From Amphiscolops sp. MND2022 (taxonomy: Eukaryota), in contig OZ076409.1 in assembly GCA_964187785.1 (NCBI GenBank), forward strand, positions 53,880,001-53,944,000: 64,000 bases of DNA, read 5' to 3'. Shown one piece after another: positions 2,901-39,304 of the stretch. Position 1 is the stretch's first letter. Every line of letters starts with the position of its first letter. Both the position numbers and the translations under genes were made by a program. The notes below the pieces were generated by a model, which had not been told where the DNA came from, ran no database searches, and saw only the letters and a list, made by a program, of their open reading frames with translations.

Positions 2901-4386
2901 TGTCGTAACCATCATCATCACTTTGTTCGAAATCTACTAGATTCTCCCTACGGTGATTATTCTGGTTACTGGAAGTTGCGATTAATTTAGGAAAGTTCTC
3001 TCCTGAGTCCTGGCAAAATTTACTTTTATGCCGTCCATGTGACTCAAGGTCTGGATTTTGAGTCATTTGGGTGTTTCTATCTGGATGCCGTCCATCTGAC
3101 CGAAGGTCCCATTTTGTGTTTTTAGCTTCCCTATTGCTCATAATTACGTTTTCAATGCTTGGCAATATCCTTTCCTCAATTGCTGAGTTTATAACCTCCA
3201 AAATATGAGAATTCAAGTCTGATTTCATTTCCTCTATTTTCCTTGACATTTGTGACGAAATTTCTGAGTTTATCATTCTATCAGTCTCAACGGTAATTTC
3301 ACTGTTTTCACTCAGATTAGTGTTTAGGAGTGATCTATAGTTTGGCTCATTTTGGTCTAAGGCCTGTTGCCGTCTTTCTGACTCGGGGTCAATCCCTATC
3401 TGATCAATGGCTTCTTGATCTCTATTTTCACTATTGGTATAATTTCCCAACATTACGTCTAAATTTTCAATATCTGACATTACGTCAGAGTGTCTGGGGC
3501 GTTTCTCTTTTGCCTTTTGCTTTCTAGTTGAAGGCATATCAATAAAGAATTTCGGATTTCAACAATGAATTGAATATCGCGGTAATGTGAACAGTGTGAT
3601 TGTAAGTGTATTGAATGAATCCTCTCTTATTGGAAACGTACATATATATACCAACTACTGCATGACGCTCAATATTTAGGGTGTCATTTATCAGAAATAG
3701 TCATGATGTCATTGTCTAAAATAGCATCTTCTAAAAATAGACTAAAAGGGTCAAATTAACCTTACGTCATTTGCCCTATTAACTATAAATAGCAACAACA
3801 ACAATTTGATTCTAATAGCTACATGTTAACAGCAACAATATATGCGTTCAAAATGATATTAAGCTAAATGGACCAATGGTCATTGTGGCGGCAGTATAAT
3901 ACTGGTTACTGCAATGTGATTGGTCAAAAGTAGTTCGGACAACGCGTCAACTTGACGGCAACGCTGTACCAGTTGAACGCGTTTCCTGTATATTGTCAGC
4001 TTACAGCATCAATTGATTAATCATTAATCCAACTTTGTCAATAGCAACAAACAATTTACTACAGGTCTGTGTGAAATACTAGTTCACAACAGGTAAGGTT
4101 TATCGTGAGTAATGCTACATGTCATTTATGACGGTAAAAATACAAGTAGGCGTTTGCCGTCGGGCTGACCTTAGGTCACAATATATAAAGTAAATGCGCA
4201 CAGTGACTAAATTAGGCAACGAAACAGTAAGATATTGACATGTATAGTAAAATAATGGTATTCGTGAATGTTTCTATTGAGTTCTGAGTTCTACCTATAT
4301 TGGGAGGACACCTGGGCCGGGAACGTTTGAGTCATCTTCAGGGGTGATCTGATATAGTAGACCGTCGCAGGCGGCAGCCTCCGACA
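2901..4386 (-). repeat. 3' LTR of element 1 (1486 bp); contains a copy of the gag 5' end (ORF 2869-3537)
   Basis: Near-identical to 21463-22955: about 15 substitutions plus 9-bp and 2-bp indels, counted by eye. Confidence 0.95.
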
Positions 4387-5122
4387 CTCCCCTGGGGATG
4401 AGAATGAAGGATCCCGCCTTCATTCCGGCTTCGAAGGCGTCTCTTTTTGCCAGCCTCGTTTCGTAGGATTCGCCTGCAACGTGTGTACGTTCTAAGTAGC
4501 CAAGTGTAATTTCCTCTTTGATCGCAGCGTAGTCTTTCCCGCACACTACACATCCCGTGTAATAGACATCATTTGGCTGCCCACAAGTCCTACTGATGCT
4601 TATTGCCAATCCCGTAATGTGAGGGTTGTTAATCCAATTGTCATCTTGAGGTGGCAAGTGGGTTTCTCGCGCATCATCATAAGCTGGTCTCTGGTCAATT
4701 AATGGAGGAGACAGAGGGGATTCTAAGATTGGGTTGAATTGGCTACATTGGGCTATTGGGTGATCACTAGCAGATTGCCCATAATATGTGGGGGGAGGAT
4801 TCCCAACGAACCAATCAATCAATGAATTCGAGGGTTCTGTAAACGTACTCACTGATTCAGTGGGTTCACTGATGGGCAAGTTAAGATCGTTGAGACATTC
4901 AGTTAGCTCGGTTGTCATGGCCCTTCCTGCCGCTAATTGTGGAAGGAATTCAGTATTGTATCGGTAGCAAGCCAAAACTTGTATATCGTCGTCCTCGCCG
5001 GTAGCATCTAGAATATCGTCAGCGGAATTTATGGAGTCGACGTCCATATCTTCATCTGACGACTGGTAGCTTAGATCTACTAGCAATCTGGGAAGTAATT
5101 CACAGTTGAATTGTAGAGCCAT
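4295..5122 (-). CDS. Accessory sense ORF of element 1 (~275 aa from ATG 5122; acidic/Pro-rich, CxxC motif), ends inside the 3' LTR
   Basis: Open frame 4295-5287 whose first ATG gives MALQFNCELL. Contains TCGQ...GCVVCGKDY. Stop lies ~90 nt inside the LTR. Confidence 0.65.
   Translation of the reverse strand: MALQFNCELLPRLLVDLSYQSSDEDMDVDSINSADDILDATGEDDDIQVLACYRYNTEFLPQLAAGRAMTTELTECLNDLNLPISEPTESVSTFTEPSNSLIDWFVGNPPPTYYGQSASDHPIAQCSQFNPILESPLSPPLIDQRPAYDDARETHLPPQDDNWINNPHITGLAISISRTCGQPNDVYYTGCVVCGKDYAAIKEEITLGYLERTHVAGESYETRLAKRDAFEAGMKAGSFILIPRGVSEAAACDGLLYQITPEDDSNVPGPGVLPI
4387..4393 (-). promoter_or_regulatory. Polypurine tract (AGGGGAG) of element 1
   Basis: Purine run on the minus strand immediately before the TG of the 3' LTR. 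Confidence 0.7.
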
Positions 5123-5771
5123 CTCAGCGTTGTGTCGATTGAGGAATATCCTTTTCGCAATTTTGCTAGCTTGAATTCGAGGCGACTGATTTTCAGAACG
5201 GTAGGATGAGAAGTAAACTTTTGCCGTCCGCCTGACCTTAGGTCCAACCCCAATTTTGGCGGGAATACGGCGCGGGGTTTCTCCCAAATCATAGTTTCAA
5301 CTTTTTCCTTTTTAGGTTTTGATTAAGAGTAGAGTCTCAAATAATTTTCGAGCAATTTATCTGCGAAGCTTGTTAATAGCCTCTTCAAGTTGTTTTACTT
5401 TATTCTTCAAAGGCGTCACTTGACAATTTAAGTGTCGTTCCTCTTAATTCTCTGTCAACAATTAACTTGAAAGACCGTCGGTCCGTGTGACGGCAATAAT
5501 GATGACAACCAATCAGGTGACGCTAATTTGAATGAAGAAACGTGGTGAAAGTTTTCCTAATTGTGAAATGAAGTAATTAATTTGCTGCGTTTTAGGGAAG
5601 AATAGTGAAATAAAATAACAGGGAAGTCCATGAACATTTCACTGGCAGGCTCCATATCATGGATTAGTAATGAGGAAATCTAATTAGTGCAGATGAGGAG
5701 ATGGTAACAAGAGAACGTTTTATATGTAGCCACGACGTCCAGTTGGTAAGAATAACAACAGTCATAATATT

Positions 5772-5781
5772 ACTAATAATA

Positions 5782-5859
<78 letters not shown>

Positions 5860-5869
5860 TTAATAATAA
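5772..5869. repeat. (TAA)n microsatellite, left part
   Basis: Near-perfect ATA triplet run. Confidence 0.95.
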
Positions 5870-8800
5870 GTAATCGTAATGCCAAACTACACCCAATTTT
5901 ACACTGCGCAGGACAAATGACACCGCTAAGTAAATATCAGTGCCAAGTTACACCTTTATTATTAAGATATTAAGTGGGGTATTTGGTATGTGTAGATTGT
6001 TTCCAAAGGGGTTTCTCGTCCTTAAGAATAACCTGCAAAACTGTTTTCCGCAAGCCATTTAAACCCATACAGTGGCACACTAGTTCCACAAAATCTAACG
6101 CAATTCTTATGATGACATACAACACCAGTTTATCACCCCATGATTAATCACCAGCACTCAATTTTCAGTACTAGCACATTTCCAATCATGAGATAGATTT
6201 GGTGAAAGTTAACCAAATTTACGAGGTTTTTTCCCCTAATTTGGGAATAATGCTTTAGTTTCGACGAAATTAATTTCAGGAAAAACAATTGCTTGGTGAA
6301 ATAACTGATACCGAAAGTAATAAAGCTCTCGTTAAACTTTTTAAAACTAGGTACAAAATCGTGCATTGAAAGAACCATGAGCGGAAATGGGATCTTTTTT
6401 GTTAATTCGCCCCACCGATTCAATTCTCACCGCTAAACGGTTAAGGGAAATTATCAATGAATTATTAAACTACAATCGAATTGGAGTTCATGCGTTCAGT
6501 TTTTTATGGTTTACATAGTAGCAAACAACCATTAGCATGAAATTTATCTGAAATGTTTCATGTTCCAATTTTCAAGAACTTTCTTTTTTTTTCTAAAATT
6601 CCGAGTGAAAATTAACAGAAAAATTTCGAACAGTTTAGTTTTTTTTTCGAATTCCGTACGAAAGTATATTATTCTTCACGGAAATTTCAACAACGAAGCC
6701 CCCCCCAACACGGAGGAACATTTTAATCTTTAAAAGTATTCCACTCATATGAACATCAATAAAAAGGTAAATACCAAATAACATAAGAGCAAATAACTTA
6801 AGAACAAAATTAATTTCAAATAGCATAAAAATAAAACCGAAAACCTGGTTAAACAATCAAATTCACGAAACTTGATTTGTAATTTTCATACTTTTTCCAG
6901 GTAATCTTTTGAATTGTGAATGATTTTGACCAGTAAAACTTTCTCGTAAGCAATTTTATGTTTATGTTTGGTGAAACTCAATTAATTTTTATGTTATTTG
7001 AAACTAATTTTGTTTTTATGTTGTTTGCTCTTATGGTACTTGGGAATTCACCTAAATAAAATGTGCTTTCGTGCTGGGGGATTCACAAACAAGGTGTACC
7101 TGGGAGAAATAATTATAACCCATTTCAGGTTACAATCTCGCAGCAAGGTTCAGTAAGTATTATGTCGACATCGTTTGCTGAGAAATTTAATTATTCAATC
7201 TCCATTTCAACTGACTGACAAGCTGAAATGAATATAATTGGTGAAACTATTGGCCAATAAAACGCAATTGTGCATGTCTTCAAAAATTGTCCTCTGATAT
7301 TAAATATTGGAGTTGTTTGTCCTTTGATTTTTAATGCGGGGGTTATTTGTCTTCTGATATTAAAAATGGAGTTACTTGTCCTTTGGTATTTTTAATGCGG
7401 GGGTTATTTGTCCTCTGATATTAAATATTGGAGTTACTTGTTCTCTGGGATTTTCAATATAGGGGGTTATTTGTCCGCTTCTATTTATATAGGAGTTATT
7501 TATTCAAACCTCTGGTATTCAAAATAGAGGTTGAATTCTGGAATAAATATTCTGGAGATTATCTTTGTCAAACTTTGCAGATTAATACGACCACCTTGTT
7601 TCTTAATTCCCACCAGGCAGTGGCCAAAAACTCCGAAAGTTTATTTATTTATTTCAGTTGAAAAAATACGCAGATAAGCAAAGAATGAAAATTCAACCGG
7701 TGCTCTCGTTTCGGTCCGCCCCACGTTTTAAAATCCTGAACCCGCCCCTAATTATTTTCGATAGAAAACATCAATATCGACGTTGTAATTGAAATCAAAT
7801 AAATGAAGTAAATTCAGTTTAATTCACAAACGAACATGTGCTTTTGTGTTGCGGGAAATACAAAACAAGGCATACCTGGCAGCAATAAGAATTATGCATT
7901 TCAGGTTACAATTTTCTCGCATTAAGGTTCATTTAGAATTATGTCGACATCGTTTGCGATGTAATTTTGGTCCAAAAACAATAGTGATGTCGTCAAATAA
8001 TTTTTATTTCATCTGACTGACAAGCTGAATTTAATTTAATTGGTGGAACTCTCGGCCAATAAAAACGCAATTATGCATGTCTTCAAAAAGTGTTTGAAGC
8101 ATTGCGAATATTGCTAAATGAAGCAAAAGGATATTATAAAAAGCTTTGCGCTTTGGAAAAATAAATCGATGCTTCAGGTATGAGAATGAAATAATAATCC
8201 CAAAAACAACCATATGCTGATAAATGCTGCAATACGACAGGCTTGTAATCTTGGAAAAAATGAAAGTTCTATTAGATGCAACTAATACTTATTTGGAAAG
8301 GATTTAGTAATGTAATTTATACGTTGTTTTGAATTTGCCAATCAAATATCTAAACAAACTAATTTTTGACGTTTGTCACGCGGGAGAGAAACGTTATTGG
8401 ATGATGGAAAGAAACCAACTAATTTATATTTAAATAAAAGTTGACCAACGAACGTCACGAAGTCTTTCTGCTTTCTAGCGTGACTAACGTCAAAAAGGTT
8501 TTCTGCTTCCGCAAGTTCGCAGTTTCGCATAGTGATTGTAATAGATTACCCATGTTCACCCTTGATTGACACAATTACAAATCGAAATTATTTAAAGTGA
8601 TGAAGTTTTCATTTAAAGAATAATCCTACTTTAAAAAAATTGAATGTCTGACAAGCTGAATTGCAAGATCCAGAGTTGTTTTGAAACAATTATTTTCAAA
8701 TAGTTGAAACTTTGAAAGCTCAAGAACTTTCATGCATTCAGTTTTTCATGATTTACATAGTAGCAAACAACCATAAGAATGATAATAATCTGAAATGTTT

Positions 8801-9820
8801 ATTGTTTCAATTTTTTGTTTGAAAAACAGCATTAAAAACCTTATCAAAACAAGAATTTGTTTCAAGAATGAAATGACATTTTTCGGGGGCAATTTTTTAT
8901 ATTTTATATATTAAACAACTTTGATAAAAATTACAAAAAAACTTTCTGATGGGGGTGTTAATTCTTATTTCCCTCATGAGTTGCACCTTGTTACGAATCC
9001 TCCGATTTCACGGAATTGATTCCAAAACGTGCTTTCGTTTGGAGTGGGTTCAAAAGTGTGAAATCATTGGCGAATGCGGCAGCAAAGAAATTTGAGCATA
9101 AACATCATTGATCAAAAATACACAAGAACATGCCATTCTGATTTCGGGAGGGGGGTTAATTTTTATCTCCCCCATGAGTTACACCTTGTTACGAACACCC
9201 GCCTCCCCAACTCAAGAGGTACCTGGGAGAAAATTTCATAACCAATTTCAGGTTACAATTTTCTCGCAACAAGGTACCTCTAGAATTTTAGAATTATTTT
9301 GACATCGTTTGCTGTGAACACTTTGGTTCAAAGTGAAAGTTCACATGTCATTTTGCATACAAGAATTGCAGCAATGGTATACGTGCCAGAAGGAGTAATT
9401 TGTCATCTAATTTGCCGTCCGCAGAACTTTTCAAGCAGCACAAATACTGTACCATATCTAACTTCTTATACACCAATAGTCTGTGCGGTAATTGGTGTGA
9501 ATGGCCTAATTAACGATGATGCGCCATAATACTACAAAAACATTCAGAGTGTAGTTTGTCCTTAAGATTATCTGGAAGGTGGTTATTTGGTATTGGGAAA
9601 AGGACCTTAATAATTCAAGAATTACGCGATCAATTTCGTTCAAAGTTTGGCAAATTTCTTTTTTAAGGGTTTTCAGCTGCTTCCCTAAATTTCGTTTTCC
9701 TACTACCCGTGGAAGCGAAGATTCAGGATAATGCCAAACTACACCCCAAAGAACCCCTCAGCTGGTGGTGTTTGGCATGTGGTAGAGTACAACTGTGGGG
9801 TTATTTGGTACTGCGTTTAC
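5870..9820. mobile_element. Non-coding TIR insertion (PIF/Harbinger-like) nested in the (TAA)n tract
   Basis: Imperfect TIRs GTAATCGTAATGCCAAACTACACC / GTAAACGCAGTACCAAATAACCCC (17/24 matches), TAA on both sides. Internal direct repeats at ~7060-7290, ~7835-8090, ~9215-9330 and at ~6485-6570 vs ~8730-8810. No long ORF. Confidence 0.55.
7287..7530. repeat. Tandem minisatellite of ~30-33 bp (TTGTCCTCTGATATTAAATATTGGAGTTA-like)
   Basis: About 7-8 diverged units visible. Confidence 0.8.
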
Positions 9821-9871
<51 letters not shown>

Positions 9872-9890
9872 TAATAATAATAATAATAAA
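9821..9890. repeat. (TAA)n microsatellite, right part
   Basis: Near-perfect ATA triplet run. Confidence 0.95.
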
Positions 9891-10532
9891 CAAAATAGAG
9901 TAATAAAAGACTAAGTTGTGGCGTTAACTTGACAGTACGAATTAGTAATTAGTCAGTAGTGTGATAAAGAGTATGGGAAGTAGTATAAAAGTACATTTGG
10001 TAACAATTAATGTCTTGCCGTCAGGATGACTCATAGTCAAATTTGCTCGCGGTGGTTGAATAATACTTGATTGTGAACTAGTAATACCTTGCCGTCAGGT
10101 TGACGCTGAGTCCACTACCTTGTGCTGCTGTATTAGAACCTTCCACTTATATCAATTGTTTTCTCGTGAAGTATCACTTGAGCTAGACTGTATTACCCAG
10201 TGATCAGGATAGTCTCTCTGAGCTCGAGTTACACTTTGATAGGGTCACCATACCAGAATTTTCAACTTTTCGCCAATCGAGACTTTCGAATTGTTTATCG
10301 ATTCGAATTTGAATTCTCATTTACTTATTCCTCCTTTAGTACAATCTTCCCCATACAAAAGATCTTACTACACGTCACGTTCGTTCAGACACAAAATTCT
10401 GTGGGAAGGATTTTAACAACATTCTGCTTTTCTCCATCGTGAAAGGATATTTGGAGTAGTGTTGCCAACTCAAATAACTCTCTTCTACTTCAACATACAG
10501 CAATTGGGGCACATCAATTTTGCTGATCAAAT

Positions 10533-13500
10533 ATGGATTCAACATCAGGTTGGTTCCTTTTTAAAGTGTTAAAATTAGGCTTGATCAGGGCTCGTAATTT
10601 TAACTAAGTTACATCGTGAAATGTTTGCTGTCAGCATGAACACTAAGTCAAAGAACTTCCCGAAGAAATTTAAATGCGGTAAGATGGATTCATATTCAGG
10701 AAGTGAACCGCGATTATTTATCTCATTCCGTTTAGGTAATGAGTCGAACGGCCAACCTCTCCAAGTTGCTGCTGACGAAGAGAAAATGGATACTAGCGAT
10801 TCGTTTGTCACTGCTGTCTCCAATGTTGGGAATCCTTCTCCAACAGGGGCCAATACTTGCGGTCTACCTGAGTCAGAAGTCAATGCCACTAGCCTTGAAG
10901 GAGTGATAGAAGTAACTGCAATGAGTATTGAGGAACGTGAGACGGTCACTGACGCGTTGCAAGCCAATGAAACACTGGATCCCTCAGTTGAGGTAGCACA
11001 AGGGTCTTCAGCTGTTGAGCCCAGTACTGCAACCACTCCAGACATTGCTGCCGGGCCTCCCAACGTTGAGAGTAGTAGCACCGACGAGAGCTGTGACGCA
11101 CACATCGCCAGGAAATGGGAGCAATGGGGCACTTCACAAGAACCGTGTACCTCCAGTCAAGCCGACGGCAAAGACGCTAAGTACAGTGAAAGCGTGATAA
11201 TGGAATTAATACCTGGACAGCGTCCCACAGACTACAAAGAGGCTGACAATGACTCTGTGTCTGAAGTGGCATTTTTGGATACCCCAAAACTACCACTAAA
11301 AAGCAATTTGAAGTCTCTGTATCGACCTACTGAGGCTAAGGTTCAAAAACTCTGCGTTAAAATGGGAGATACGAGAAGAGAACATTCCATATCTGACTAT
11401 GAGACCAAAGGACTTTCAACTTCGGAGGGATACTCTGCCGACGAATTTGAAGATGCTGGTCAAGATGATACCGTCATCCGGGTATCACCGAATAAGTCAG
11501 GAAGCGACCGCGCACAAGAATCAGATGGGCCGATTGGATCAACGGTAGCTGAAGCATTGTATGCGCCTGTGCAGTCAAATATGTTCCGAGTTAGTGACGT
11601 GGCCAGTAATACATCTGCCGATTTCCCTGAGGTTATGCCACGGGTTGCTCAATTATCTGCCAGTGGACGTGCCTTAATGAAGGAATACTTTGAAGAAGCA
11701 ACTCCTGTCCGTTTGCCTCCTGGGCATTCTACTCTCGCTCTCAACGAGGGACAAGTTAGCCACATGCTAAAGGTTTTGGCTGACGAAGCAGTGAAATCGT
11801 CCCTGAAGGCCATGGAAAACTTAGTCCACCAAGCCAGTCGACTGAACCTTGGGCAGCAGACGTCAACCGCTTTTGGTATGCCTATGTCAAGGCGACCTTC
11901 TTCTCGAGGTAGCGATATTGACTCGCAGTCCGGATTCTCCTCAGGCCATGCCAGTGATACTAGCGGAGCCATCAAAAGTAATGATGATTTGGGCAGCATT
12001 GGTTATGTCTATGAACACTCCGACCTAGAAAGCCAGCGGATCACTCTCCCTCCAGCAGGTCCATCCGGAAGCCGTCATGCTGACCTTGCGTCCCCAGAGG
12101 TCTCTACTCGTGTGGATAGTCCTGGAGCGCAGACCTTGGCTGGACTTAAGGCGGAAGCAGTTGCTGAGAAAGTCAGGTCAAGTTGTCGGAAAAAACAGCG
12201 CAAGGCGCCTGCTCGGTCCGGTGGGGGAAATAGACATCACGTGACTCGAGCCTGCAAAATGATGAAGGAGGCTTATTTCAAGGGGATGGAGTGGACCAAG
12301 ACATTTGTGTCCGGACCAGTAGACCCACGCTGGAACCCCCACAAATTTTACTGCCAAATATGTAAAGGCAACATATCCATCTACGGACGAGGCGCCAGGG
12401 AGATACTCCGTCACCACGCCACTGAACGCCATCTCAGGAAAGATCAGAGGTGGCGTTATGAACATCTCTCAACCAAAGATCCCATAACAAAGCAGGTGAA
12501 GCACTACGTTCGCGGGAAAGACGGCCGACTTCTCACTCCTTATGAACTCCAGCTGGAGTTACCCAAATTCATTGGAGTTGAACTCATTGATATCGGAGAG
12601 AAATTGCCGTTCTACGATGAGTACCTACAAGGAACCGACTACATGGCTTCGTCATCGGAAAATTGGGTCCGAGTGCAGATTTCAGTACTAGGCAATTATT
12701 TACGAAGTTACGGAGACATCAGTACATTGAGGGAATTTTGGCGAGACATTGGAGTAGTAGTAAACCACCAGTCTCTCTTCACTGATTTCGACTGGAGTAA
12801 AGAACGTTTGTCGGTGAGTAAATTCTTCTAGTCTTCTTGACCTTGGGTCTTTCCTAGGAACGTTGTATTTATCGTTCTTTTATCGTATCATTGGTGTTTT
12901 CCAGGTTCTTTTTCACCATCTCTTCTTACAAGTGATGCGCGATGTGGCTAGTCACGTGATCGCATCGGGAGAATACTCACTTGAGTTCATCAAGCAAGGT
13001 GTCTGCCTGCTGGTTTTCGTGCGCTTCTGGAGGAAAGACGAGTTGTGCCGTGTGTTCTTAAAGCGGACCGGACGGGTGTTAGGACAGTCGTCAGCTGAGT
13101 TGGGCCTAATCAGTAACGTAATGGCTGCCGTATCCACAAGTCCCAACATTATCTGCTGTTCAGGCAGCTCATTGGAGAAGATTCACCTCTTCGACAATTC
13201 ACCTTACTGTGAACATGGACTGCAATGTCCATTCAGATTTGAGGACTTTTCAATAGCCAGCCTAATGCACAAGGAAAGCTACAGCGTCTTTGGGCGGATC
13301 GATTTCCATTCAGTCCTAAAGTATTTAATTGTTTTCTTGGGCGGATGCTTGGATTGTGATTGGACAATGATGACACCAATACTAGCTAAGGTTAGATCCT
13401 GTCTTGTATTCACCTAGTAGAATTACTTGTCTAATGAGCAAGGGTTAGTAAGTTACGTGACTTCAGGCCGTACGAACTTGTCAGATTGAATTGGCTACTC

Positions 13501-14966
13501 TGCCCACACTCTGTCAGGAACTGTTAACGAACTGGACAAAGATCACCACTTATTTGAATACTCACGCTCCTCCTCACGAAATGATGGGAGCTCGAAAGCA
13601 GGTAAGATACTGCCGTCACTCTGACCACTGGTCCAACAAGATCTGATTTGATTTCTTAACTGCTGTTTCAGCCGCAGGACCTAGAACGTGCAATGATTCA
13701 CGATGAACTATTTTTGTGCCGACTTGAACTTTTCTATCGCTGGGTCAGAGATTGTAAGTCTTGATAGTCAAACTTATGCATCCGTGTTTGGTTTTGTTTT
13801 GGGCATAATCAATGTCTCGTTTAGATACCACTAGCTTTGTGCCGCATCTTGTAGAGAGACGAGACCACGGGTTCCATGTGTACAGACAACTGTGCCAATT
13901 CTTGTTCAAACTGGGCAGGCGTTGCATTAAGCCAAAAAGCCTCCCACAAGAAAGTGACCTGTCCGGAATCCTCAACATAGCCGTGTCTGACGCCAAGGCA
14001 CTAAGCGTGACTGACTTCATCGCGCGCTCCAAACTTGATCAGAGACTGAAAGTTGCATGCAAAATAAAGGCTGACAAAGAACTGAGCGACAAAAAAGGCA
14101 ATCGATCCAATCTGCCTAAACTCATTAAAGAAGCCAAGGAGGAGTTCGGTCGACTTGGGCGCAGTTATGTTGCGTATCTATTTCACGCGACCCAAAACAA
14201 TTTGCAGCTGACGTCTGACATAGTGAAGGGGTTGGGATCATTTGACCTCGAAATTATGTTCCGGTCTCCCCTCAGCCAGGCCTTGTACTGCTTTAAGCAG
14301 CTCTTCCGTAGTTTCCATCTCCGTGGGTATTTTCAGGCGGACGACGAGTCTATTCTTACAGAGGAATAACTGTCATTTCTTGATGAACTGCGAAAAGAGA
14401 TGCCTGATTTGGAACAACCCAGAGTCATAATTCTTGATGCTGTCTCGTACATTTCCAAGCATTCGGCCTTGCAGTCTCGGCCCCATCTCACTCGAATTTT
14501 CAAATTGAGTTGTCTCTGCCTTGATGAGAGTTATACCAGCATGCCAGTAGTGAAGTTTGGTCCCGTCCGCACGGATGATCCTAAGAGCAAGCTCATAGAT
14601 ACCATTTTGCCAGTTCAATCCTTCTTTATCAACGTGGGACGAAGTATAGATAGCCTTACATCAGCCTCTTCAATTGCCAAATTCTTGGCCTTTGAGCCTA
14701 ACTTTGGAAATTCTGCCTTTAGTGACACATATTGCCCTTGGGACAGTCTTGATCAATTCAACCGCAATACGATCCTTGCTACTTTGAAGCCCGAGTCAAA
14801 GAAAAGAAAATTAGACTCTCGGAAATTGAGGTTCCAAAATTTGAAGCGGGGCAATAGTTCTAAAAGCCTTCCTCCACCCAGCGCTAAGGGGTCGCCGATC
14901 AAACGTCAATCTGACAGTGAGCTGCCTACTAGTTCTAGAGTTCGATATTTTGATAACGATTGTTAA
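10533..14966 (+). CDS. Antisense, spliced zinc-finger (BED-like) gene inside element 1. Exons 10533-10548, 10736-12813, 12905-13390, 13467-13601, 13672-13753, 13825-14966; ~1312 codons with one premature TAA at 14367
   Basis: Five GT..AG introns with phases 1,0,0,0,1 join the separate ORFs into one frame. Contains the CQIC-x14-HH-x4-H finger. AATAAA at 15131. The first mini-exon is the least certain. Confidence 0.8.
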
Positions 14967-15150
14967 CTGTACTTTATGTACATTTGTGTTTATCTGTATT
15001 TATGTAATCTTTCGTTTGTTTGTACTTTTGAGTTTTTCTGTTTATATAACCGTGTCATTTGTGACACCAAGGTGAAAAGACAGTCTGGGCCTAGCAAATG
15101 ATTAAAGAATCACAAAAGATATGTCAGGCCAATAAATTCACGTTTTCTGT

Positions 15151-18100
15151 CTAGTATCTGTATTCGTCAGTAAAGTTGGGGGTAGGATTGGGGCGTAAGT
15201 TATATTTCCCTCCCCTAGGACTTTCGTTTTCTACAACGTAATCATCAGTTTCTTCAATTAATACATCGGGCACGGTTGTATCGTTCCCTCCGATATTTGA
15301 AAAATCAGAATTTCCATCCCTGGGAGAGTCCCGATTGGGCAGATTATCGTTTCCCAATTCAGTACTTTGTTGCCGTCTGCTGGACTGACGGTCTTCATTA
15401 GGTAGGTCGCGCGCATACTGATCAGAATTATCAGACTCAGTATTTGTTTGCCGTCGCGCGGACCGAAGGTCCGCTTCAGCTACTTCACGCGAGTGTGAAT
15501 CAGAATCCGCAGCGTCAGTATTTTCTTGCCGCCGCGTGGACCGAAGGTCCAAATCCGTGATTATAGCGTCTTGTTCATCAAAGTGAGTAGGAGAATGGTT
15601 GGGAATGATTTGCTGTTCAGTACTAGGAGGGAAATCATCGAAATCGCTTTCCCATGAAATAATGTACAGGTCGTCTTGCGGGATATAATTTCATCATCAG
15701 CTTGTAAATTTCCTTCAGGACGAGTATCTTGTAAGGTAGTATTTGGAGTATATTTTCGAAGGCGTATTCGGTGTAAAATTTGCGTTTTGTTAGAATTAAG
15801 TTTGCGCACTATATAATTCTCGTTAGGAAGGACCTTTTCGATGACATATGGTCCAATCCATCTAAATTCTCGAAATGGGATTTTAGAACTCTGATGATCT
15901 GCTAGTGGCTGTAAAATGAAACAAAAATCTCCTTGTTCTAAGGGAGCTGCTTTAGCCTTCCTGTCGTAATAGTCTTTGTACTTTAAGTATGATTGCATAA
16001 TGTTTTTCTTTGTTTTATCGATAAGAATTTGAGTGCGGCGTTGGAGTTCTTCAGCAAAGTCAGTTGTTGGTATGATTTTCGGGTTGGGGTTCAGACCTAA
16101 CCTATGGTCCAGGATGTTATAAGGCACTCTGCCATGAAAAATTCTGGATGGCTCGCAACCTAGGCTAGAGTGGTAGGTTGTATTGTAATTAAGGACAGCC
16201 AAAGGAAGGTATTTATGCCACTGGCGCCTGTACTCTCCTGATGCCATTTTGAGGTTTCCTTTAAGGCTGGCATGGGTTCTCTCTAGTTTACCTATGGTCT
16301 GAGGATGCTTTGTGGTGGCGCATTGAAGTGTGATGCCCAAAATTTTTGCTACTTCTGATACTACGCGAGACGTAAAAGCCGTTCCTTTATCTGTGATAAG
16401 TGTCGTTGGTAGATACGTGTGTCGGGTCATGATGTCAATGAGAACTTTTGCTGTACTGATGGCCGACGCGTCCGTTACGGGATACGCGAAGAGGTATCTG
16501 GAGAAGACATCTAAAGCTGTTATGATGTTTTCATATCCTCCACTTGGTGGTAGATTGGGTAAAAGGTCAATTTGTAAGGCATCTTCCGGGCCTAGATCCC
16601 ATTCAGGCAAATTTAGTAATTCGGGTGTGATTGATGCGTTAGCGATTCGTTTGTCTTTGATGCAGATTTCGCACCCTTGGACCCATTTTTCGACGATTTT
16701 TGCAACGCCCGGATAATAGTATTTTTGACGTATTTCATGAAGCATTTTGGAAATTCCCGGATGTTTATTCGCAGTTTCATGTAAGGATTGGAGTAATTCA
16801 GTAACAAGATGTTTTGGTAGTAACACCTGACAAAATTGTACACTGCCGGTTTCATCGTAATAGTCTCTGTAGATAATATCTGCATGAACGGACAGACGGT
16901 CAAGTTGACGGCAGTAATGTCGGTAACGTGGATCTTGCTATAAGATGGTTTCAGAGTATTCTTCTTTTTGTAATTTGAGGCGTAGTTGTTGCAATGTGAT
17001 GTCATTGTTTTGTTCAATAGCCATGGTGATTGGTTTCGCTAGTTTTTGCAAAGTTGGAGTCTGGATTTGGGTACTTTTATGTAGGCTGAGTTTATCCAAA
17101 GTAATATCAGGTAGTTGATTTGTAGGATTTGACCTGGCCTCCTTTTTCCGTTGCCATAATTGTTCCTCAGTTTCTTCATCATCGTCTGTATAGAATATCT
17201 GGTCCTCTTCAGTCACTCCCGCTGATTGGACATTAAGTTCAATGGGTGTAGTGGGAATGTCCTCTCGTATGCGGAGTACAAGTTTCTCTTTGGGACAGAT
17301 TTCGAGACGAGAGAGATAATCTGCGGCGGTGTTGTTTTTCCCTGGTATATGGGCAATCGTGAAGCTGAACTGAATAACATAGTCACACGCATTCCATAGC
17401 GTTGGTGGAATAGTTTTCGTCTGAAAAAAGCGAGGAACTGATTTGTTGTCTGTTAGAATGATCACCGGTGTCGGGGTCCCCCAGAAGATGTGTCCAATCT
17501 CCTTGAAGGCAAAGAATATCGCTAAGAATTCTTTCGCATAGATGGACATTTTCAGCTGGGCGGGACTAAAGGTCTTGGATCCATATGCTACTGGTGCAAA
17601 GGCTTTGCGCGTTGAACTATATTTTTCCATTGGATCATCCTCGATGAGAACTGCATAACCTGCTGCCGAAAAACTAGCGTCTGTCATCAGGGCTATCTGT
17701 TTGTTGGGCAGGGGTTGTTTGAGTGCGAGATCACAACATCGGTCAAGAGCTTTATTGATCTCGGTGAATTGTTCTAACAGTTCGGGAGTCACCATGACTT
17801 TGGCATCATTTTTCAACAGCTTGAAGAATGGTGTTAGCTTTTCAGAGAGCCTTGGAATGTAATTGCAATAGTAGTTTAAAAATCCCAAATATCGCTGAAG
17901 TGCTTTTTTGGATTTCGGAAATTTCGTTTTCTCTAGGAAGTTTTGGACCCTGGGTCGGTGCGGCCGCACTCCCTCAGGAGTGATGGTGCGTCCCAGGAAG
18001 TCAATTTCTTTGGCTCCGAAGTGACATTTGTGCATCGTTAATTTAAGACCTGCGGTTCTGATGCATTCAAAGGTTGCTCGCAAGTTGTTGATGAGTTGAG

Positions 18101-20312
18101 TGGCACTGTTGGCGGCAATCCCAATGTCATCGACATATTGAGCACATTGATCCGCTTTAATCACTTTATCTAGGTATTCACGCATGAAACTTGAGAAAGC
18201 TGATAGGGCGCGGCTCAAACCTTGCGCGAGTCGGCGGTAGGCAAAAGTTCTACTGGCGAAAATGAACGCCAACATCTCTATGGACCTCTGGTCCGCCATC
18301 TGCAGACAGTGATATGCCTGAGAACAGTCGAGCTTGCAGAATAATCGTTTGCCTGCCATGTGTTGCGCTGCATCCGTTAGTGTACTGACAGGATGGTTGT
18401 TGTTGATATAATCGTCGGAAATCAAATTGTTGATTTTTCGGAGGTCAACCAACAGTCGTAATTTGCCATTAGGTTTTTTCTGGGCAAAAATGGGACTCGC
18501 ATATTTGGAAAACGGTAGTGTCGTTATGATCCCATAGCGGTGGCGTAGCGCTAATTCAACAAGAATGTCTTCTTTGAGGTTGATAGGGGTAGGTAGGCTT
18601 TGACTGTAGGCAGGAGAGTCGTCTTTAGGGGTCAGTGTGACTTTGAAGTCCTCGTTCATACCTATATCAAAGCGGTGCCTTGCAAAAATGTCGTGAAACT
18701 CGACAAGTAATTCTTCAATTTGGGCAATTTCAACTGGATTTAGCGTTGAGTCAATCCAGTCAAAATTGGCAGGAAACTGTTTCCTGGACTCAGGGTCATC
18801 CTGAGGGTTGAGTTTCTCTGAATCCTGAAGGCTTTGTAATTCCCTGAGGATTCTTTGTTGTATGGGTGTATGTGTCTGAGTGTCTCCTGGTTCTTCTGGG
18901 GTCGGGAACCAATAGTTTTCACTGTCTTCGCTAATCTTCGGGGATTTGATGAGGCTGCTGGCATAGTATGCAGCATTTTCCGGATTATCCTTCAAAAAGT
19001 GCCAGGTGGTCACCGGGTCGATGGGTTTGACATATTTCATCTGTTCTGGGGTGAGAACAAAGAAATTTGCAATGTGCGAACCTCTTTTGATAGTGTAAGG
19101 CTGGTCATTGAAATTGTTGACATGGATCGATACCTGACCTTGGGTCAGTGTGACGAGAGCAGCGCAGAAGGTTATATCACCATCTTCTGCAAGGTCATTG
19201 CTCGGTTGAAGAATTCCAGTGACGTTTGTGTCGTCATATAGTTGTGAGGACATGGAGACCATATGTCTGTCGTTGGGGGGAATAGTTATATCCTCCCGTG
19301 CACAGATAGGTTCCATGACATTGGTGTACTTGTGGTCAGCTGTTTTCAATTGCATGGAAAAGAATGGGAAGTTTAAAATTCCCTGTCGCATGTCCAATAT
19401 GGTATTGTTCCGTTGCAGGAACGAGAGACCAATGAGCGGACTTGAAAGTTTTTCCATGACAATGAAGATCTCATGGAAATCGATGTCCCCGACCTCGAAT
19501 TTGAGTTCAACTGTGCTCTTTGGATTCTCCAGCTGTCCATTAGCTACCATAATTTGGAAGTTGGGTGCCGGGCCCTCTTTAATTATGAACTGAGGGGCTA
19601 GTAATCGGATTTTACGTAGATGAGCTTCTGGGATCGCGCTAGATAGGGCTCCCGTGTCTACAAGGCCATCTAATGTTAGTTCGCCAAAATCCATTGGAAA
19701 GTAGAGCATGCGGCGTTTATATTTGCGTCCCAAGTTGGTGGTCAACGGGAAATAGTCAGGTTCACCATTTCGTGAGATCAACGTGTTCACATAGCGTTCT
19801 TCCACTGTTGCCGTCAATGTGATCAAAGGTCCATTGTGTGGAAGTTCTTGTGTGATTTCCTCCTGGATTGGTGGGTGGTTGTTAATCTGCCCCTTTTGCC
19901 AGGGGTCCACAGAGGCCATGGATAGTTTAGTATGCTGTAGCTGATCAATATGGTGTTGATCAGGTTCGATATCTGCAGCATTTTTGGTGAAGTTTTTGTA
20001 GAAGTGTAGATGATGCTGGTTGTAGATTTGAACGTCCCAATAGGGGTCGAAACCAAAGTCTGGGTCGGGATAATAGGGATTATAGTTTTCTATGAGGGGA
20101 AGAGTGCGAATAGTCATAGTGTTAGAGTGCTGTCTATTGAACTGAAGGTCCAAATTGTGTAAAATGGTAGGAGTTTGTTTCACCTGCTGCTGCCAGTCAG
20201 CTGATGAATTTTCTTTAATGGGGGAATAATATTCTGTATAATAGATAGTAGGAGGGTCAGATATGATATGTTGTCTGACGCGTAGTTTTTCATTAATCTG
20301 GAGTCGTGGCAA
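15151..20312 (-). pseudogene. pol: pol of element 1 (protease, RT, RNase H, integrase); a few frameshifts near 16940, 16830 and 15690
   Basis: Protease LVDTGA; RT YVDD; RNase H TDAS...TDNK; integrase HPG..CEIC, QIDL/DVFSR/TDKG/LERTH and GPY module. Confidence 0.95.
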
Positions 20313-20314
20313 AG

Positions 20315-22108
20315 CTAGTTTTTTGAATTTTTGAGAATAGAAGTAGTGGGTTTGTTATTGGAGTCATCTTGACTCATGGGATTTTCCTCGGTTTTGGAAT
20401 TATCCAATTTGAGGTTTTTGGGCTTGAGGTGGGCTCCAGCGCCTTTCCAACACCGTTCCGCCGGGTGATTCGTTTTGTCGCAAGTCGGACATTTGGGATA
20501 TTCCTTCTTCGTATCCTGCCCGCCATTGCGCTTTTGTTCCTCCTTTCTCTTGAGTTTTCGGCAGTCATCTGTGACATGTCCCGGCTTTTTGCAATAGTTA
20601 CAAGTGATATTCGGGTCAATGCCGGATGAAAGGAGACCAGTTCCCGGTCGTGTTGCTGTGGGGGCAGTGGACATTGTGGGGACGTGAATGTCGTCACCTT
20701 CCTCAAGTCCATTCAATTCTAATTCTCGTTCGAGATGTGTGACAATCTCTTCATACGTAGCGTTTTCAAGTCGCGACTTGTTGACTGAACGTTTCAGTTT
20801 GGGTGGTAGTTTGGCGTAAAGTAAACTGTCAATCATTGCTTGGGCATGTTCCCCAAAAGCTTTTTCAGCACCTTGGTTTAGTTCTTTAAGGAAGTCAGGC
20901 AATTTCACAGTATTTGGATCAAATACCAATTTGTGCCATTTATGTTTGGCGGTTGCCTGAGATTCGGGTTTGACATATTTCCTACGGAAGACTGCTAGTA
21001 TGTCCTCTAGGGTTTGTCTGTTGGTTGAATTGATGTTGCGAAAAGTTTGTAGGGCGTTTTTGCGCAACAGAGAGTGGAGATGGTTGATTTTCATTGTTTC
21101 CGTCATGTCTGGTTGCATCTTTATCATCGTGTGAAAAAGATCTTCGAACAGTTCGAACTTTTCAGATTTCCCGTCAAACGTCAGTGTGGTCGTACTGACT
21201 GGGCGTACCATCAGAGTTTGTGATGGTTGTTTCGTGTTCATCCCCAGAATGACATCTGCAAGACGGTTGATGGGGTCAACTGGGGGTTCGCGGGGCGTCT
21301 CCTGAGTGTTAATTGGAATTGGATTTTGCTGAGCTGGGAGGGTTGTTTCCAGCGTATCGTCAGTGCTGGGATTTGGAAGGGGAATAGTGTTTCGGGATTG
21401 CATGGGCCGTCCGGTCAGGAATTCTGGGACCATATGTGGGGTAAGGTTGGCTCCTGTCACCATGTCGTAACCATCATCATCACTTTGTTCGAAATCTACT
21501 AGATTCTCCCTACGGTGATTATTCTGGTTACTGGAAGTTGCGATTAATTTAGGAAAGTTCTCTCCTGAGTCCTGGACCTGTTGGCAAAATTTACTTTTAT
21601 GCCGTCCATGTGACTCAAGGTCTGGATTTTGAGTCATTTGGGTGTTTCTATCTAGATGCCGTCCATCTGACCGAAGGTCCCATTTTGTGTTTTTAGCTTC
21701 CCTATTGCTCATAATTACGTTTTCAATGCTTGGCAATATCCTTTCCTCAATTGCTGAGTTTATAACCTCCAAAATATGAGAATTCAAGTCTGATTTCATT
21801 TCCTCTATTTTCCTTGACATTTGTGACGAAATTTCTGAGTTTATCATTCTACTAGTCTCAACGGTAATTTCACTGTTTTCACCCAGATTAGTGTTTAGGA
21901 GTGATCTATAGTTTGGCTCATTTTGGTCTAAGGCCTGTTGCCGTCTTTCTGACTCGGGGTCAATCCCTATCTGATCAATGGCTTCTTGATCTCTATTTTC
22001 ACTATTGGTATAATTTCCCAACATTACGTCTAAATTGTCAATATCTGACATTACGTCAGAGTGTCTGGAGCGTTTCTCTTTTGCCTTTTGCTTTCTAGTT
22101 GAAGACAT
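20315..22108 (-). CDS. gag: gag of element 1 (597 aa, two CCHC knuckles)
   Basis: CNYCKKPGHVTDDC and CPTCDKTNHPAERC knuckles; lies directly upstream of pol. Confidence 0.92.
   Translation of the reverse strand: MSSTRKQKAKEKRSRHSDVMSDIDNLDVMLGNYTNSENRDQEAIDQIGIDPESERRQQALDQNEPNYRSLLNTNLGENSEITVETSRMINSEISSQMSRKIEEMKSDLNSHILEVINSAIEERILPSIENVIMSNREAKNTKWDLRSDGRHLDRNTQMTQNPDLESHGRHKSKFCQQVQDSGENFPKLIATSSNQNNHRRENLVDFEQSDDDGYDMVTGANLTPHMVPEFLTGRPMQSRNTIPLPNPSTDDTLETTLPAQQNPIPINTQETPREPPVDPINRLADVILGMNTKQPSQTLMVRPVSTTTLTFDGKSEKFELFEDLFHTMIKMQPDMTETMKINHLHSLLRKNALQTFRNINSTNRQTLEDILAVFRRKYVKPESQATAKHKWHKLVFDPNTVKLPDFLKELNQGAEKAFGEHAQAMIDSLLYAKLPPKLKRSVNKSRLENATYEEIVTHLERELELNGLEEGDDIHVPTMSTAPTATRPGTGLLSSGIDPNITCNYCKKPGHVTDDCRKLKRKEEQKRNGGQDTKKEYPKCPTCDKTNHPAERCWKGAGAHLKPKNLKLDNSKTEENPMSQDDSNNKPTTSILKNSKN
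20318..20324 (-). promoter_or_regulatory. -1 ribosomal frameshift slippery heptamer A AAA AAC at the gag/pol junction
   Basis: In the gag frame directly before TAG. A -1 shift opens the pol frame (CTA GCT TTG CCA...). Confidence 0.8.
21445..21462 (-). promoter_or_regulatory. Primer-binding site TGGTGACAGGAGCC.. of element 1 (tRNA not assigned)
   Basis: TGG starts immediately after the LTR-terminal CA and lies within gag codons (D-M-V-T-G-A). Confidence 0.75.
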
Positions 22109-22955
22109 ATCAATAAAGAATTTCGGATTTCAACAATGAATTGAATATCGCGGTAATGTGAACAGTGATTGTAAGTGTATTGAATGAATCCTCTCTTATT
22201 GGAAACGTACATATATATACCAACTACTGCATGACGCTCAATATTTAGGGTGTCATTTATCAGAATTAGTCATGATGTCATTGTCTAAAATAGCATCTTC
22301 TAAAAATAGACTAATAGGGTCAAATTAACCTTACGTCATTTGCCCTATTAACTATAAATAGCAACAACAACAATTTGATTCTAATAGCTACATGTTAACA
22401 GCAACAATATATGCGTTCAAAATGATATTAAGCTAAATGGACCAATGGTCATTGTGGCGGCAGTATAATACTGGCTACTGCAATGTGATTGGTCAAAAGT
22501 AGTTCGGACAACGCGTCAACTTGACGGCAACGCTGTACCAGTTGAACGCGTTTCCTGTATATTGTCAGCTTACAGCATCAATTGATTAATCATTAATCCA
22601 ACTTTGTCAATAGCAACAAACAATTTACTACAGGTCTGTGTGAAATACTAGTTCACAACAGGTAAGGTTTATCGTGAGTAATGCTACATGTCATTTATGA
22701 CGGTAAAAATACAAGTAGGCGTTTGCCGTCGGTCTGACCTTAGGTCACAATATATAAAGTAAATGCGCACAGTGACTAAATTAAGCAACGAAACAGTAAG
22801 ATATTGACATGTATAGTAAAATAATGGTATTCGTGAATGTTTTAATTGAGTTCTGAGTTCTACCTATATTGGGAGGACACCTGAGCCGGGAACGTTTGAG
22901 TCATCTTCAGGGGTGATCTGATATAGTAGACCGTCGCAGGCGGCAGCCTCCGACA
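21463..22955 (-). repeat. 5' LTR of element 1 (1493 bp); contains the gag ATG (22108) and a TATA-like run near 22211-22219
   Basis: Direct repeat of 2901-4386, followed by TSD CTGAT. Confidence 0.95.
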
Positions 22956-25129
22956 CTGATTTTTGCTTTAATGCGACAAATTACTTATCTTTGTCACTCC
23001 ATGATGGCTCTTCATCAGAAAGATATGCGCTAAGCAACGTATTGGCACTCACTGTTGCAATATCAGACACTATAAGAAATTAATGTTATAAAATTATAAA
23101 GTGATGATGTCCGTTTCTACAAGAGATCATGATTTCTGTCCCTGGATGATCACCGGAGGTAATCTTCTGCCACAATGCGACACTTTAAGTGCTCCAATAT
23201 GACATCGTGAAACCGTATTATTACAATTTTGTCCTTGCAGGAGAATGAATTTTCAATATGATGGAGCAAGCCAGGAACGGCCCAAGTCGTTGCCCCACTC
23301 AAAGATAACATCCAAACTTTTTAAATTTGCGAAGGGATTCGCATAAAACTGGAGAACCTCTATTTTCCCAACTGGGAACATCAAAAAACTGATTTTGCAT
23401 CTCATGTAATCTCATGAGATCAGTCAAGAACCAAATCCGATTTGTTAATCTTGTGCAAGGTCCAGGTATTTGCCTCGATTTCGACCCAATCTCAATTACA
23501 ATAATTGATAGACGCAAAGACAATGATTTCTCGAATTTTTATGTGGATACTCTCCTTCTCGCAGTATTCACTTAGACTGTTACCTTTCATTGCCCACTTC
23601 GGTCTTGAGCGTCCTAAGGAAGCCGGGAATGTGGAAAAAATTACGCTGAATTGATCTCTCAGTCGGAGAACCACGGGTTTTCCAGAAGCGTCTAGAATGG
23701 GTATTTGTGCCTAGCGCGAGATTGATATTGTCTTAAAATAAATTTCCAATTGTTCCGTCAAGTTGATCATGAAACCATTTATTTCCAATTCGAAAACAAT
23801 TTTAGTGAAAATATTGAAAAAGCTCTGGTTGAAATTTCGAAGAAAGAGAATCACCCTGCTCGGTGAATGAAAAGCCTGAAACATCTAGTGTTCAAAGAGA
23901 CAGCAAGGCTCAGTTGTCAGAAAAAGACTTCCAATATATAACATACGAAATCGAGAATGGACGGTGAAGAGAATCAAAGATAATGACGATACCCAGAAGC
24001 ATCTTCTAAAGTTGACAGCAAATAACCGCGAAAATCGATAGTTTAAACTGAAACGTCAGTTTATAACTTTTGTGTCGAAAGAACAGACAATTTCAACGCT
24101 TTTTTTGAAATCTGTTTGCTATATTCGATTTTTTTATATTGTAAACGTTAGACCAGATCTCACGCTCGTGCCTTCAAACCACACAACCTACCCTCTAGGC
24201 CAAATATTAAGTGTTCGTGTACGTGTAAGTAAGTAGTTTCAGTAGTTTCTACCGGAAAATTTTGAAGAAAAAATGCTATCCAAAAGAACCAATTTGAAAC
24301 TAAGGATTTTCAGTTTCCGAAATGTACATGCTTAACTTCGATTAGAAATCATTAGATATAGCAGTTTGAGAGCATGTCTGGTTGTTTTACATTTCCAATT
24401 ATAGTTGCGGATATCAGAACAGCAAGTTCAGAAGCAAGAGTCCGAGTAGTAAGGTCCGAACTTACGTTCTGAAGGCTCCTGTTTCAACATTGACGAGCTA
24501 TGTAGTGTTTCATACTGTTACGGTCCCACTTGCACATTTTGGCATACAGTTTCACTCAGTTTTACAGTTTTGAAAAAACCTAGAGGCACGAAAAGTTGGT
24601 TGTAATGCTGGACCAATTTTTTTTAATTCATAAAAAGGTGACTCTTGCAAACTCGTGCAATTTCGACTTGAAAGTTTGTGGTAAATGTAGCGTGATGAAA
24701 CGTGCCTGATAATTACAGTGACGACATCGCCCGACCACAGAATTTATACGTAGTGTCCATTTTTCAACAGAGTTGATCACGCCGCCACTCAGCCTGGTGG
24801 TTTGGATGCGTGCTTCACAGTTCGGTTCACCAGCACTGAATCCATTCCACCGAGAACTAAAATTTTTACCTAGAAAACTTGACGGGTTGAGAATCCTTTG
24901 GGGAACTTTCGGCACTATCAGACTTTTTCCGAATACAATAACTTTTCGATTATTCATTTTCACAAATTTGGTTCTTTAATATTTTCAGTTCCGCCCTTTC
25001 CGATATTTTTGGCACTTGGAAATCCATTAGAAGCTCCTTAAAAGCCACCTTGAACGAAAAAATGCACCGAAAAATAAATGATATTCTTGTCAAAGAAAAA
25101 TCCATCAGTGGACGGTCTTATACAAAAGT

Positions 25130-25533: not shown

Positions 25534-25948
25534 TGTGATGCCATGATGCATGTCCTCAAAGATTCTATAAATCTGAAATACTCTGAACTCTTAACCAAAG
25601 TAATTAGTAAATGTAATCTCATTTGAAAGCTAATTATACTAGAAGAACCTTCATTTAATATATCCTGTAACAAGCTTCCTAGATTCATCCTGTTGCTGTC
25701 ACATTGTTAATTGATGAAACCTACCCTAGTTAATAGAATATATCTACTCGGAGAAATTGAGAATTCATCCTGACGATCGGTCTTCTCTCCAGCACTTCCA
25801 GAACTGAGATCTCAGAAATAGATTGTACTTAGAACCAGCTAGCTACAAGGTATAAAATAAGACGAATCTGCTGTTAAAATCTTAGACTTCTTATGTCAGT
25901 AATAAAACATCTAAAAGAAACAACCACAACGTTTTTTAACAGCTCAAT
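25534..25948 (+). repeat. 5' LTR of element 2 (3' boundary uncertain)
   Basis: Starts TGTGATG and matches the 3' LTR up to 25896. AATAAA at 25901 and PBS-like TGGTGCGACC at ~25949 suggest it extends further. Confidence 0.8.
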
Positions 25949-26140
25949 TGGTGCGACCAAGAAAATTCTTCTTTCTCTCCCATTCACTTCACAATTCTAC
26001 AATTGTTGTACACCTTTTCTCGACTTTCTCATTCGATATTTTTTTGTTCGACAAACGGTTTCTCCACCTCTCAATATCGCCTACCGTTATTAACTTCAAC
26101 GTTGCAACCAATTTCTATTTGAAAATGATTCGTGTTGCTA

Positions 26141-26281
26141 TGGTTCTGACTACGTCCTTCCACGTAATTCCTGTCAGTCACATTTCTTGGTTCTGACTGC
26201 GTTTCTCAACGTAATTCCTGTCAGTCATATTTCTTGGTTCTGACTACGTTTCTTAGCGTAATTCCTGTCAGTTAATATTCT
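26141..26281 (+). repeat. 3 x 47-bp tandem repeat in the element 2 leader
   Basis: Units TGGTTCTGACTACGT...CGTAATTCCTGTCAGTCA start at 26141, 26188 and 26235. Confidence 0.9.
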
Positions 26282-39091: not shown

Positions 39092-39304
39092 ACACTCTCT
39101 CAGTTTTCTGTAAACTCTCTTCCAGCACACTTGCCTACTACTTCATCTTTTCACAATTGCTACTCCTCCACCGCTTGAAACCCTTTAGAAGTTCATCTTC
39201 CTCAATCCAATAACACATCTCTAATCATAACAGTCTTCAAAAACTCTTCAACTAAAGTTGATAAATCCACTCGTTAGTGTAATTTACAGAACTTTCACTT
39301 TAAA

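Follow-up and report, generated by a model that had tools for sequence, protein, structure and literature searches.

The stretch analysed here (the window: 64,000 nucleotides, positions 53,880,001 to 53,944,000 of contig OZ076409.1, assembly GCA_964187785.1, from Amphiscolops sp. MND2022) contains a Ty3/Gypsy long terminal repeat (LTR) retroelement along which a three-part motif, TGCCGTC-N4-K-GAC-N5-GTC, is dispersed and conserved as nucleic acid. Related elements carry other versions of this motif, and the version carried follows a spliced gene that lies antisense between integrase and a further open reading frame (orfX) and encodes a zinc-finger protein, referred to below as the accessory protein. 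Judging from sequence patterns alone, we put at about even the prospect that the lineage-specific motif is bound by the family's own accessory protein, which would thereby keep cognate copies transcribable.

The motif is best written as a 23-mer of three triplets that are placed 8 bp apart in alternating orientation and preceded by an asymmetric TGCC head. A preliminary description had listed 21 copies of a 24-bp version headed by TTGCC; a copy is present at all 21 positions (an exact 24-mer match at 12 of them), and the TGCC part of the head stands, whereas the leading T is not fixed, as ATGCC and CTGCC also occur. With at most one mismatch to TGCCGTC-N5-GAC-N5-GTC, 24 copies are found in the window, none of them outside 2901-22955, and 100 dinucleotide shuffles yield none. 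Neither the 4-kb insertion nested in the element nor the window outside the element holds a copy. The earlier count of 16 independent loci has to be raised to 18, with the LTR counted once, by adding 3871/22440 (-) and 12070 (+), and weaker copies lie at 12831 (+), 17946 (-) and 19136 (-). In comparison with shuffled sequence, the element holds 18 copies of the 23-mer vs 0.015, and 16 of the 19-bp core vs 0.05. The copies are scattered on both strands, 11 of the 18 loci being coding, and an element carries about 15-24 sites, which occur in U3, ahead of every gene, within coding sequence and in an intron; they cluster upstream of the gag, orfX and accessory gene start codons. The copy previously placed in an intron, at 13610, does lie immediately within the boundary of a GT-AG intron, and five relatives conserve the splice sites of this intron. 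Over 16 elements, 194 sites are on the plus strand and 112 on the minus strand, and both orientations are positionally conserved. Even spacing of the sites was considered and rejected, as the largest gap is below random (p<0.05) in just three of the 16 elements.

Constraint on the motif was assessed with six relatives at about 75-78% DNA identity. Among non-coding columns, 4 of 65 fixed motif columns are variable vs 184 of 352 flank or spacer columns, and among fourfold-degenerate columns the figures are 3 of 19 in the motif vs 880 of 1,191 elsewhere. Synonymous sites are saturated between the compared copies (proportion of synonymous differences, pS, 0.6-0.9), and the motif bases stay fixed amid this change, in agreement with the earlier claim that the constraint acts on nucleic acid; within gag and pol, even the choice of codons is shaped by the motifs. 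In three other reference lineages (clades I, III and P19), divergence at fixed positions is lower than in flanks by a factor of 2 to 6. In a set of 12 young copies, shared changes affect 1 of 104 fixed columns vs 6% of other columns (p=0.02) and private changes are not significantly fewer in the motif (0.75% vs 1.3%, p=0.12), a pattern as expected if selection acts on replicating lineages, the direct contrast of private with shared changes being non-significant (p=0.30). These data make it hardly credible that the repeat arose as a side effect of peptide repetition, local duplication or gene conversion. Some copies do encode similar peptides, and three are 78 bp apart; however, conservation extends to non-coding DNA and fourfold sites, several frames and both strands, while flanks are unrelated and spacers variable, so that this explanation is largely refuted.

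The motif is very probably a protein-binding site on double-stranded DNA. Both orientations are common, which upholds the earlier preference for such a site over an RNA structure, and it fits best because the asymmetric TGCC head has no pairing partner. Alternatively, the motif might be recognised in RNA or single-stranded DNA, where it would form small hairpins or serve as a packaging signal bound by Gag; we consider this improbable. CGAAG spacers could form GNA-triloop hairpins, the GAC-N5-GTC spacer is self-complementary above shuffled sequence (60 vs 46 and 51 vs 34 of 118), and the motif class is not rejected by gag trees. However, about half of the sites are without spacer pairing, the second covarying pair would leave a loop of 1 nt, covariation is absent from the first dyad and from the outer pair, and more than one third of the sites are reversed despite the asymmetric head. 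A known RNA family was also rejected, as an Rfam search of 2800-23100 at gathering score gave 0 matches.

No full copy had earlier been noticed outside the element; this holds for the window and not for the 1.07-Gb genome, which contains 3,919 exact copies of the 23-mer vs five for a reversed control pattern. Among the 100 of these 3,919 matches that were listed, 99 lie in full, truncated/deleted or solo-LTR copies of the element family and the remaining one in a 96%-identical duplicate of a family stretch, so that every match listed traces to the family. This distribution speaks against the possibility that the sites recruit host transcription factors, each lineage being tuned to a different factor, to which we give a small chance. 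LTR elements commonly carry host factor sites, the dyads resemble what we take to be nuclear-receptor-type half-sites (GGTCA/TGACC), and TGACC and GGTC are frequent in the window sites. Nevertheless, host factors would leave the family origin of all 100 listed copies to be accounted for, a stepwise change of the motif, core and spacing included, would demand a matching series of factors, and the motif class follows the accessory gene in mosaic elements. Two deleted family members (L007+L008 and L009), with extended terminal repeats of 2.25 and 3.8 kb, keep the LTR motif set and are candidates for non-autonomous users of the predicted accessory protein.

Motif discovery grouped 71 of 77 loci, leaving 6 of the 77 ungrouped, and the first finger tree omitted 15 of the 77, which are frameshifted. 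De novo motifs are TGCCGTC-5-GAC-5-GTC in the window lineage, TGCAGTC- in L047, TGTNGCC- and TGAGGCY- (P19, L052), a headless G[AC]C-5-GAC-5-GTC in clade I and G[GT]N-5-GCC-6-GGC in clade III. GAC-N5-GTC occurs 18-27 times per locus in the 26 loci of clade II, 10-18 times in the 14 of clade I and 0-4 times in the 31 of clade III; GCC-N6-GGC occurs 0-3, 1-6 and 4-12 times in clades II, I and III, and cross-counts of motifs between lineages are nearly diagonal. Site positions are largely common within clade II, with some gains and losses, and the motif shifts stepwise along the element tree, core and spacing included (the element trees being internal to the family). At the start of integrase, the same Cys-Arg codons read TGC CGT C in the window lineage and TGT CGC C in the P19 lineage; the codons match the motif of the own lineage, and element H alters the residue instead. 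In the P19-lineage sites of L036+L037, a weak extra GGT lies about 5 bp past the last triplet, hinting at a fourth half-site.

The accessory gene has five exons and about 1,320 codons, and its GT-AG sites are conserved in five relatives. Its sequence indicates that it is intact and spliced in the family and is under purifying selection (proportion of nonsynonymous differences, pN, 0.06-0.14 vs pS >0.8), although exon 5 has a stop at 14367 in this copy; most relatives are open for about 380 codons. Antisense genes with introns survive retrotransposition, and the accessory gene can keep its introns because it is antisense. Its finger pattern has 2,221 exact matches in the genome vs 0 for the control, and all 60 finger loci chosen from the 100 of these matches that were listed, a non-random choice made to span finger variants, are flanked by the family's retro genes; the C-x2-C...H-x5-H residues are invariant or nearly so. 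That the gene is a nested hAT insertion was rejected, as its place in the element is shared by every clade, even where identity falls to 30%.

Given a protein site on double-stranded DNA, we hold it probable that the accessory protein is its reader. The elements are mosaics of segments, which allows the motif class to be compared with each gene in turn. In trees of accessory exon 2 and of the finger region, the ten TGCCGTC elements group together as a single clade (support 99 and 82, respectively), and so do the eight tested for exon 5 (support 99), whereas TGCCGTC monophyly is rejected for orfX (p=6e-8, seven elements), integrase (p=0.003) and protease-reverse transcriptase (p=0.02; eight elements for both). 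Only in accessory segments does the lowest within-class identity exceed the highest cross-class identity. Element F combines a window-like pol with a different accessory gene and different heads, and element C combines a divergent gag-pol with a window-like accessory gene and TGCCGTC heads. The product of orfX was rejected as reader, since orfX of elements A and D is 94-98% identical to that of L047, yet their sites are mostly TGCCGTC. Differences in the finger between motif classes fall 5-10 places ahead of the first His; with the register anchored on this His, they would correspond to the region in which the BED domain of Hermes makes base contacts (PMC10368747, in the part of the paper accessible).

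The accessory protein is likely of hAT transposase origin and is probably a catalytically dead hAT transposase. Its domain order, with a finger, a strand-rich exon 2 containing an (L/V/I)R(F/Y)W motif and a long helical exon 5, recalls that of a hAT transposase. The model of exon 5 (mean predicted local distance difference test score, pLDDT, 72) aligns with residues 366-584 of Hermes (8edg_A) over 154 residues (Z 5.1, root-mean-square deviation 6.0, rank 11), and among 50 structural-alignment rows Hermes is the only long one, the other 49 covering 38-73 residues. The finger gives weak Atlas matches to zf-C2H2_12 and zf-BED clusters (0.86-0.87) and, in hidden Markov model (HMM) comparison, a best match of E=0.065 to a genomic hAT finger; the finger-region model (pLDDT 60) gave no fold match. 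Exon 2 contains no invariant Asp and has Glu-Phe at the position of the first hAT Asp, as aligned by eye in a register that is not statistically secured. Searches of the accessory exons with Pfam, PDB sequences, Foldseek (pdb and viral) and VIA second-look returned no significant family, and homologue searches found unnamed family members only, with no relative in a metagenome scan. None of 33 exon-5 proteins matches PF05699, the C-terminal hAT dimerisation region, which genomic hATs do match; a PF14291 search gave no match, and none for its controls either. Exon 5 also gave HEAT-like Atlas matches (0.90) with few features in common, which were discounted as generic to helical proteins. The genome search further showed about 13 members of a small hAT family (L134, L154-L157) whose copies are nearly identical to one another and have lost internal sequence, keeping the finger and the PF05699 end.

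A mechanism may be proposed on this basis. An oligomer of the accessory protein would bring its zinc fingers to the three half-sites, which alternate in orientation at 8-bp intervals. The sites ahead of gag, orfX and the accessory gene would serve as response elements of the LTR and internal promoters, with positive feedback among their effects, while those along the body would shield the element from host chromatin silencing and keep it open. Protein and sites would drift together, so that each lineage would help only itself and its solo or deleted copies. With the accessory protein as reader, there is a good likelihood that its role is activating rather than repressive or one in packaging. 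Self-repression for copy-number control, or coating of the complementary DNA for nuclear entry, protection or integration, would also use these sites, and the co-variation evidence applies equally to it; moreover, the sites extend through pol, far from promoters, and the normal role of hAT BED fingers is transpososome assembly at subterminal repeats (PMC10368747, in its accessible part). However, the sites cluster upstream of all three start codons, and strong purifying selection on gene and sites in multiplying lineages would more simply reflect a replication benefit, which makes repression or coating unlikely.

Protection from CpG methylation was rejected, as CpG transitions are not raised (0.94% vs 0.86%) and the background is barely CpG-depleted (observed/expected ratio 0.92-0.98). 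The silencing opposed is therefore more likely to be histone- or small-RNA-based than to depend on DNA methylation. Overall, the scenario would be that an animal LTR lineage captured a hAT transposase, which lost catalysis and became a private transcription or anti-silencing factor, diversifying with some 20 sites into many mutually specific pairs of protein and motif and acting without DNA demethylation; we advance this full version tentatively, at somewhat less than an even chance. If true, it would provide a natural zinc-finger recognition code, which could keep retrotransposon lineages apart in the manner of a species barrier.

Several observations weigh against binding and activation by a hAT-derived accessory protein. 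Gag trees do not reject the TGCCGTC class (approximately unbiased test, p=0.44, 0.27 and 0.39), and the N-terminal part of gag predicts the motif class for 29 of 29 by nearest neighbour. Across all of clade II, motif distance shows rank correlations of 0.69 with integrase and 0.71 with gag (nine rows) vs 0.43-0.51 with accessory segments, and integrase keeps the higher partial correlation. Recently swapped segments retain donor-type sites (U3/orfX of element A, from an L047-like donor; the integrase start of element C), so that linkage explains part of the match, and the compared rows are related, with the motif class drawn after the first trees had been seen. The second-dyad N5 spacer is somewhat more self-complementary than shuffled sequence, an effect that may be inflated by the pooling of ten related elements. 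As for hAT origin, the Z of 5.1 is within the chance range for helical models, and comparison with genomic hATs by HMM and hhalign, including a Blackjack-like family found by a short finger motif, gave no significant support. Finally, the lack of a CpG signal gives no indication of demethylation of the VANC type.

Self-specific DNA-binding regulators appear so far to have been described mainly for plant DNA transposons; here, the proposed carrier is a retrotransposon. The VANC/VANDAL system of Arabidopsis comprises an accessory protein and a short, family-specific, multi-copy motif, with proposed co-evolution (PMC5735166). As far as the accessible part of that source extends, the present system resembles it in an element-encoded accessory protein under selection, in the proposed restriction of each family's effect to itself, and in a family-specific multi-copy motif that is rare elsewhere and differs between sister families. 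However, VANDALs are Mutator-like DNA transposons and this is an LTR retrotransposon; their 9-bp motifs are mainly non-coding tandem repeats in one orientation, whereas the 23-bp, three-part motif here is dispersed, often coding and present in both orientations. The VANDAL effect is DNA demethylation, whereas here the motif changed site by site with no CpG-decay signature, and VANC binding has been shown, whereas binding here is predicted. A Pfam search found no VANC-type family among the accessory exons.

Other systems share single features, in each case within the accessible part of the source. TnpA of Spm is a transposase-derived regulator that has kept DNA binding, has lost catalysis and activates cognate copies via motif clusters (10.64898/2026.08.24.746577, a main text in which neither 'retrotransposon' nor 'LTR' appears), but it has remained within the DNA transposon that encodes it, where its action is at the termini, whereas here a probable hAT-derived gene would serve a class I element along its full length. 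Plant Retand/Tat Gypsy elements likewise have an antisense open reading frame between pol and the 3' LTR, TRP28 (Transposase_28), with predicted DNA binding and a proposed regulatory role (PMC11963269); TRP28 has another domain, is confined to plants, is stated there to be of unknown function and has no target motif in that text, whereas the gene here is spliced and its candidate targets co-vary with it. In Hermes, three BED domains cooperatively bind a quasi-palindrome plus a third repeat (PMC10368747), so that a zinc finger reads short half-sites, as predicted here; however, the Hermes sites are AAGT near the ends of a cut-and-paste transposon, whereas those here are spaced at 8 bp inside a retroelement, and the accessory protein shows no evident catalytic residues. 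Foamy virus Tas/Bel1 is a retroelement protein that binds response elements in the LTR and internal promoter (PMC517496); Tas is sense-encoded and has few response elements, whereas the accessory gene is antisense with about 20 sites, and the likeness carries no expectation of homology. The accessible part of PMC13547354 lists plant accessory proteins, with no comparable system among them. A literature search, outside which most subscription papers and supplements lay, found no LTR element with a captured hAT-like regulator or a dispersed self-binding motif; these elements may already have entries in Repbase-type annotation.

Outside plants, the escape of transposons from silencing is an open question, and in the parts of the literature consulted no candidate targets were found for antisense accessory genes of LTR elements. 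In this family, both halves occur in one genome, with more than 2,200 diversified zinc-finger gene copies and a matching series of long, precise motifs, and change is concerted at some twenty dispersed sites without tandem-repeat turnover. The idea of self-activation is directly testable and could yield a recognition code for BED-like fingers.

Assignment of the element to Ty3/Gypsy follows from its direct LTRs of 1.49 kb, 98.3% identical, with the CTGAT duplication, and from Pfam matches in gag and in the order protease, reverse transcriptase, RNase H and integrase, the dUTPase being located after the protease (Table 1). No env family was detected in it. About 220 Gag codons lie inside the LTR (21463-22108), with the frame continuous over the primer-binding site, and solo LTRs therefore carry an open reading frame for the Gag N-terminus. 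In this copy, pol is interrupted twice, by a stop near 16938 and by a change of frame near 15690. The orfX product matches no Pfam family, contains a CxxC motif and is under purifying selection, and orfX has been freely swapped between lineages (98% identical between A and L047).

Table 1. Features of the retroelement, in window coordinates; strands of individual motif copies are given in brackets.
Feature	Position	Strand	Remarks
Ty3/Gypsy LTR retroelement, TG...CA ends	2901..22955	-	5-bp target duplication CTGAT at 2896-2900 and 22956-22960
5' LTR	21463..22955	-	motifs 21600, 21657, 21939, 22724 (+); 22440, 22507 (-); R-U5 part encodes Gag N-terminus
gag, zinc knuckle	20315..22108	-	ATG at 22108 within LTR; frame crosses primer-binding site near 21449-21462
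pol: protease, dUTPase, reverse transcriptase, RNase H, integrase, integrase tail	15151..20354	-	
Motif copies in pol	15371, 15449, 15527, 19809 (+); 16891 (-)		
Paired motif copies	10016..10112	+	about 600 bp upstream of accessory gene start
Accessory exon 1	10684..12813	+	long low-complexity N-terminus, then C2H2 finger (C-x2-C ... H-x5-H) from 12352
Motif copies in accessory exon 1	11148 (-), 12070 (+)		
Accessory exon 2	12905..13390	+	by eye like hAT RNase-H strands, without first catalytic Asp
Accessory exon 3	13467..13601	+	
Motif copy in intron 3	13611..13633	+	
Accessory exon 4	13672..13753	+	
Accessory exon 5	13825..14966	+	helical; Hermes transposase 366-584 gives the longest structural alignment
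Nested 4-kb insertion in duplicated (TAA)n tract	5855..9817		absent from close relatives; no motif
orfX, sense-strand open reading frame overlapping 3' LTR	4295..5122	-	upstream motif copies 5222 (+), 5473 (-)
3' LTR	2901..4386	-	same six motifs as 5' LTR: 3029, 3086, 3368, 4155 (+); 3871, 3938 (-)

The nested insertion contains internal 30/61-bp tandem repeats plus an inverted repeat and is possibly a microsatellite-targeting element. In addition, the window contains a second, degraded LTR element at 25534-43350 (+), with 363-bp LTRs that are 98% identical, an integrase and no motif copy; it carries a chuvirus-type fusion glycoprotein gene (PF24664) and a strong C skew. Further along, a 15-bp tandem array in inverted arrangement occupies 53419-53698, and a 130-bp near-perfect palindrome lies at 49502-49631.

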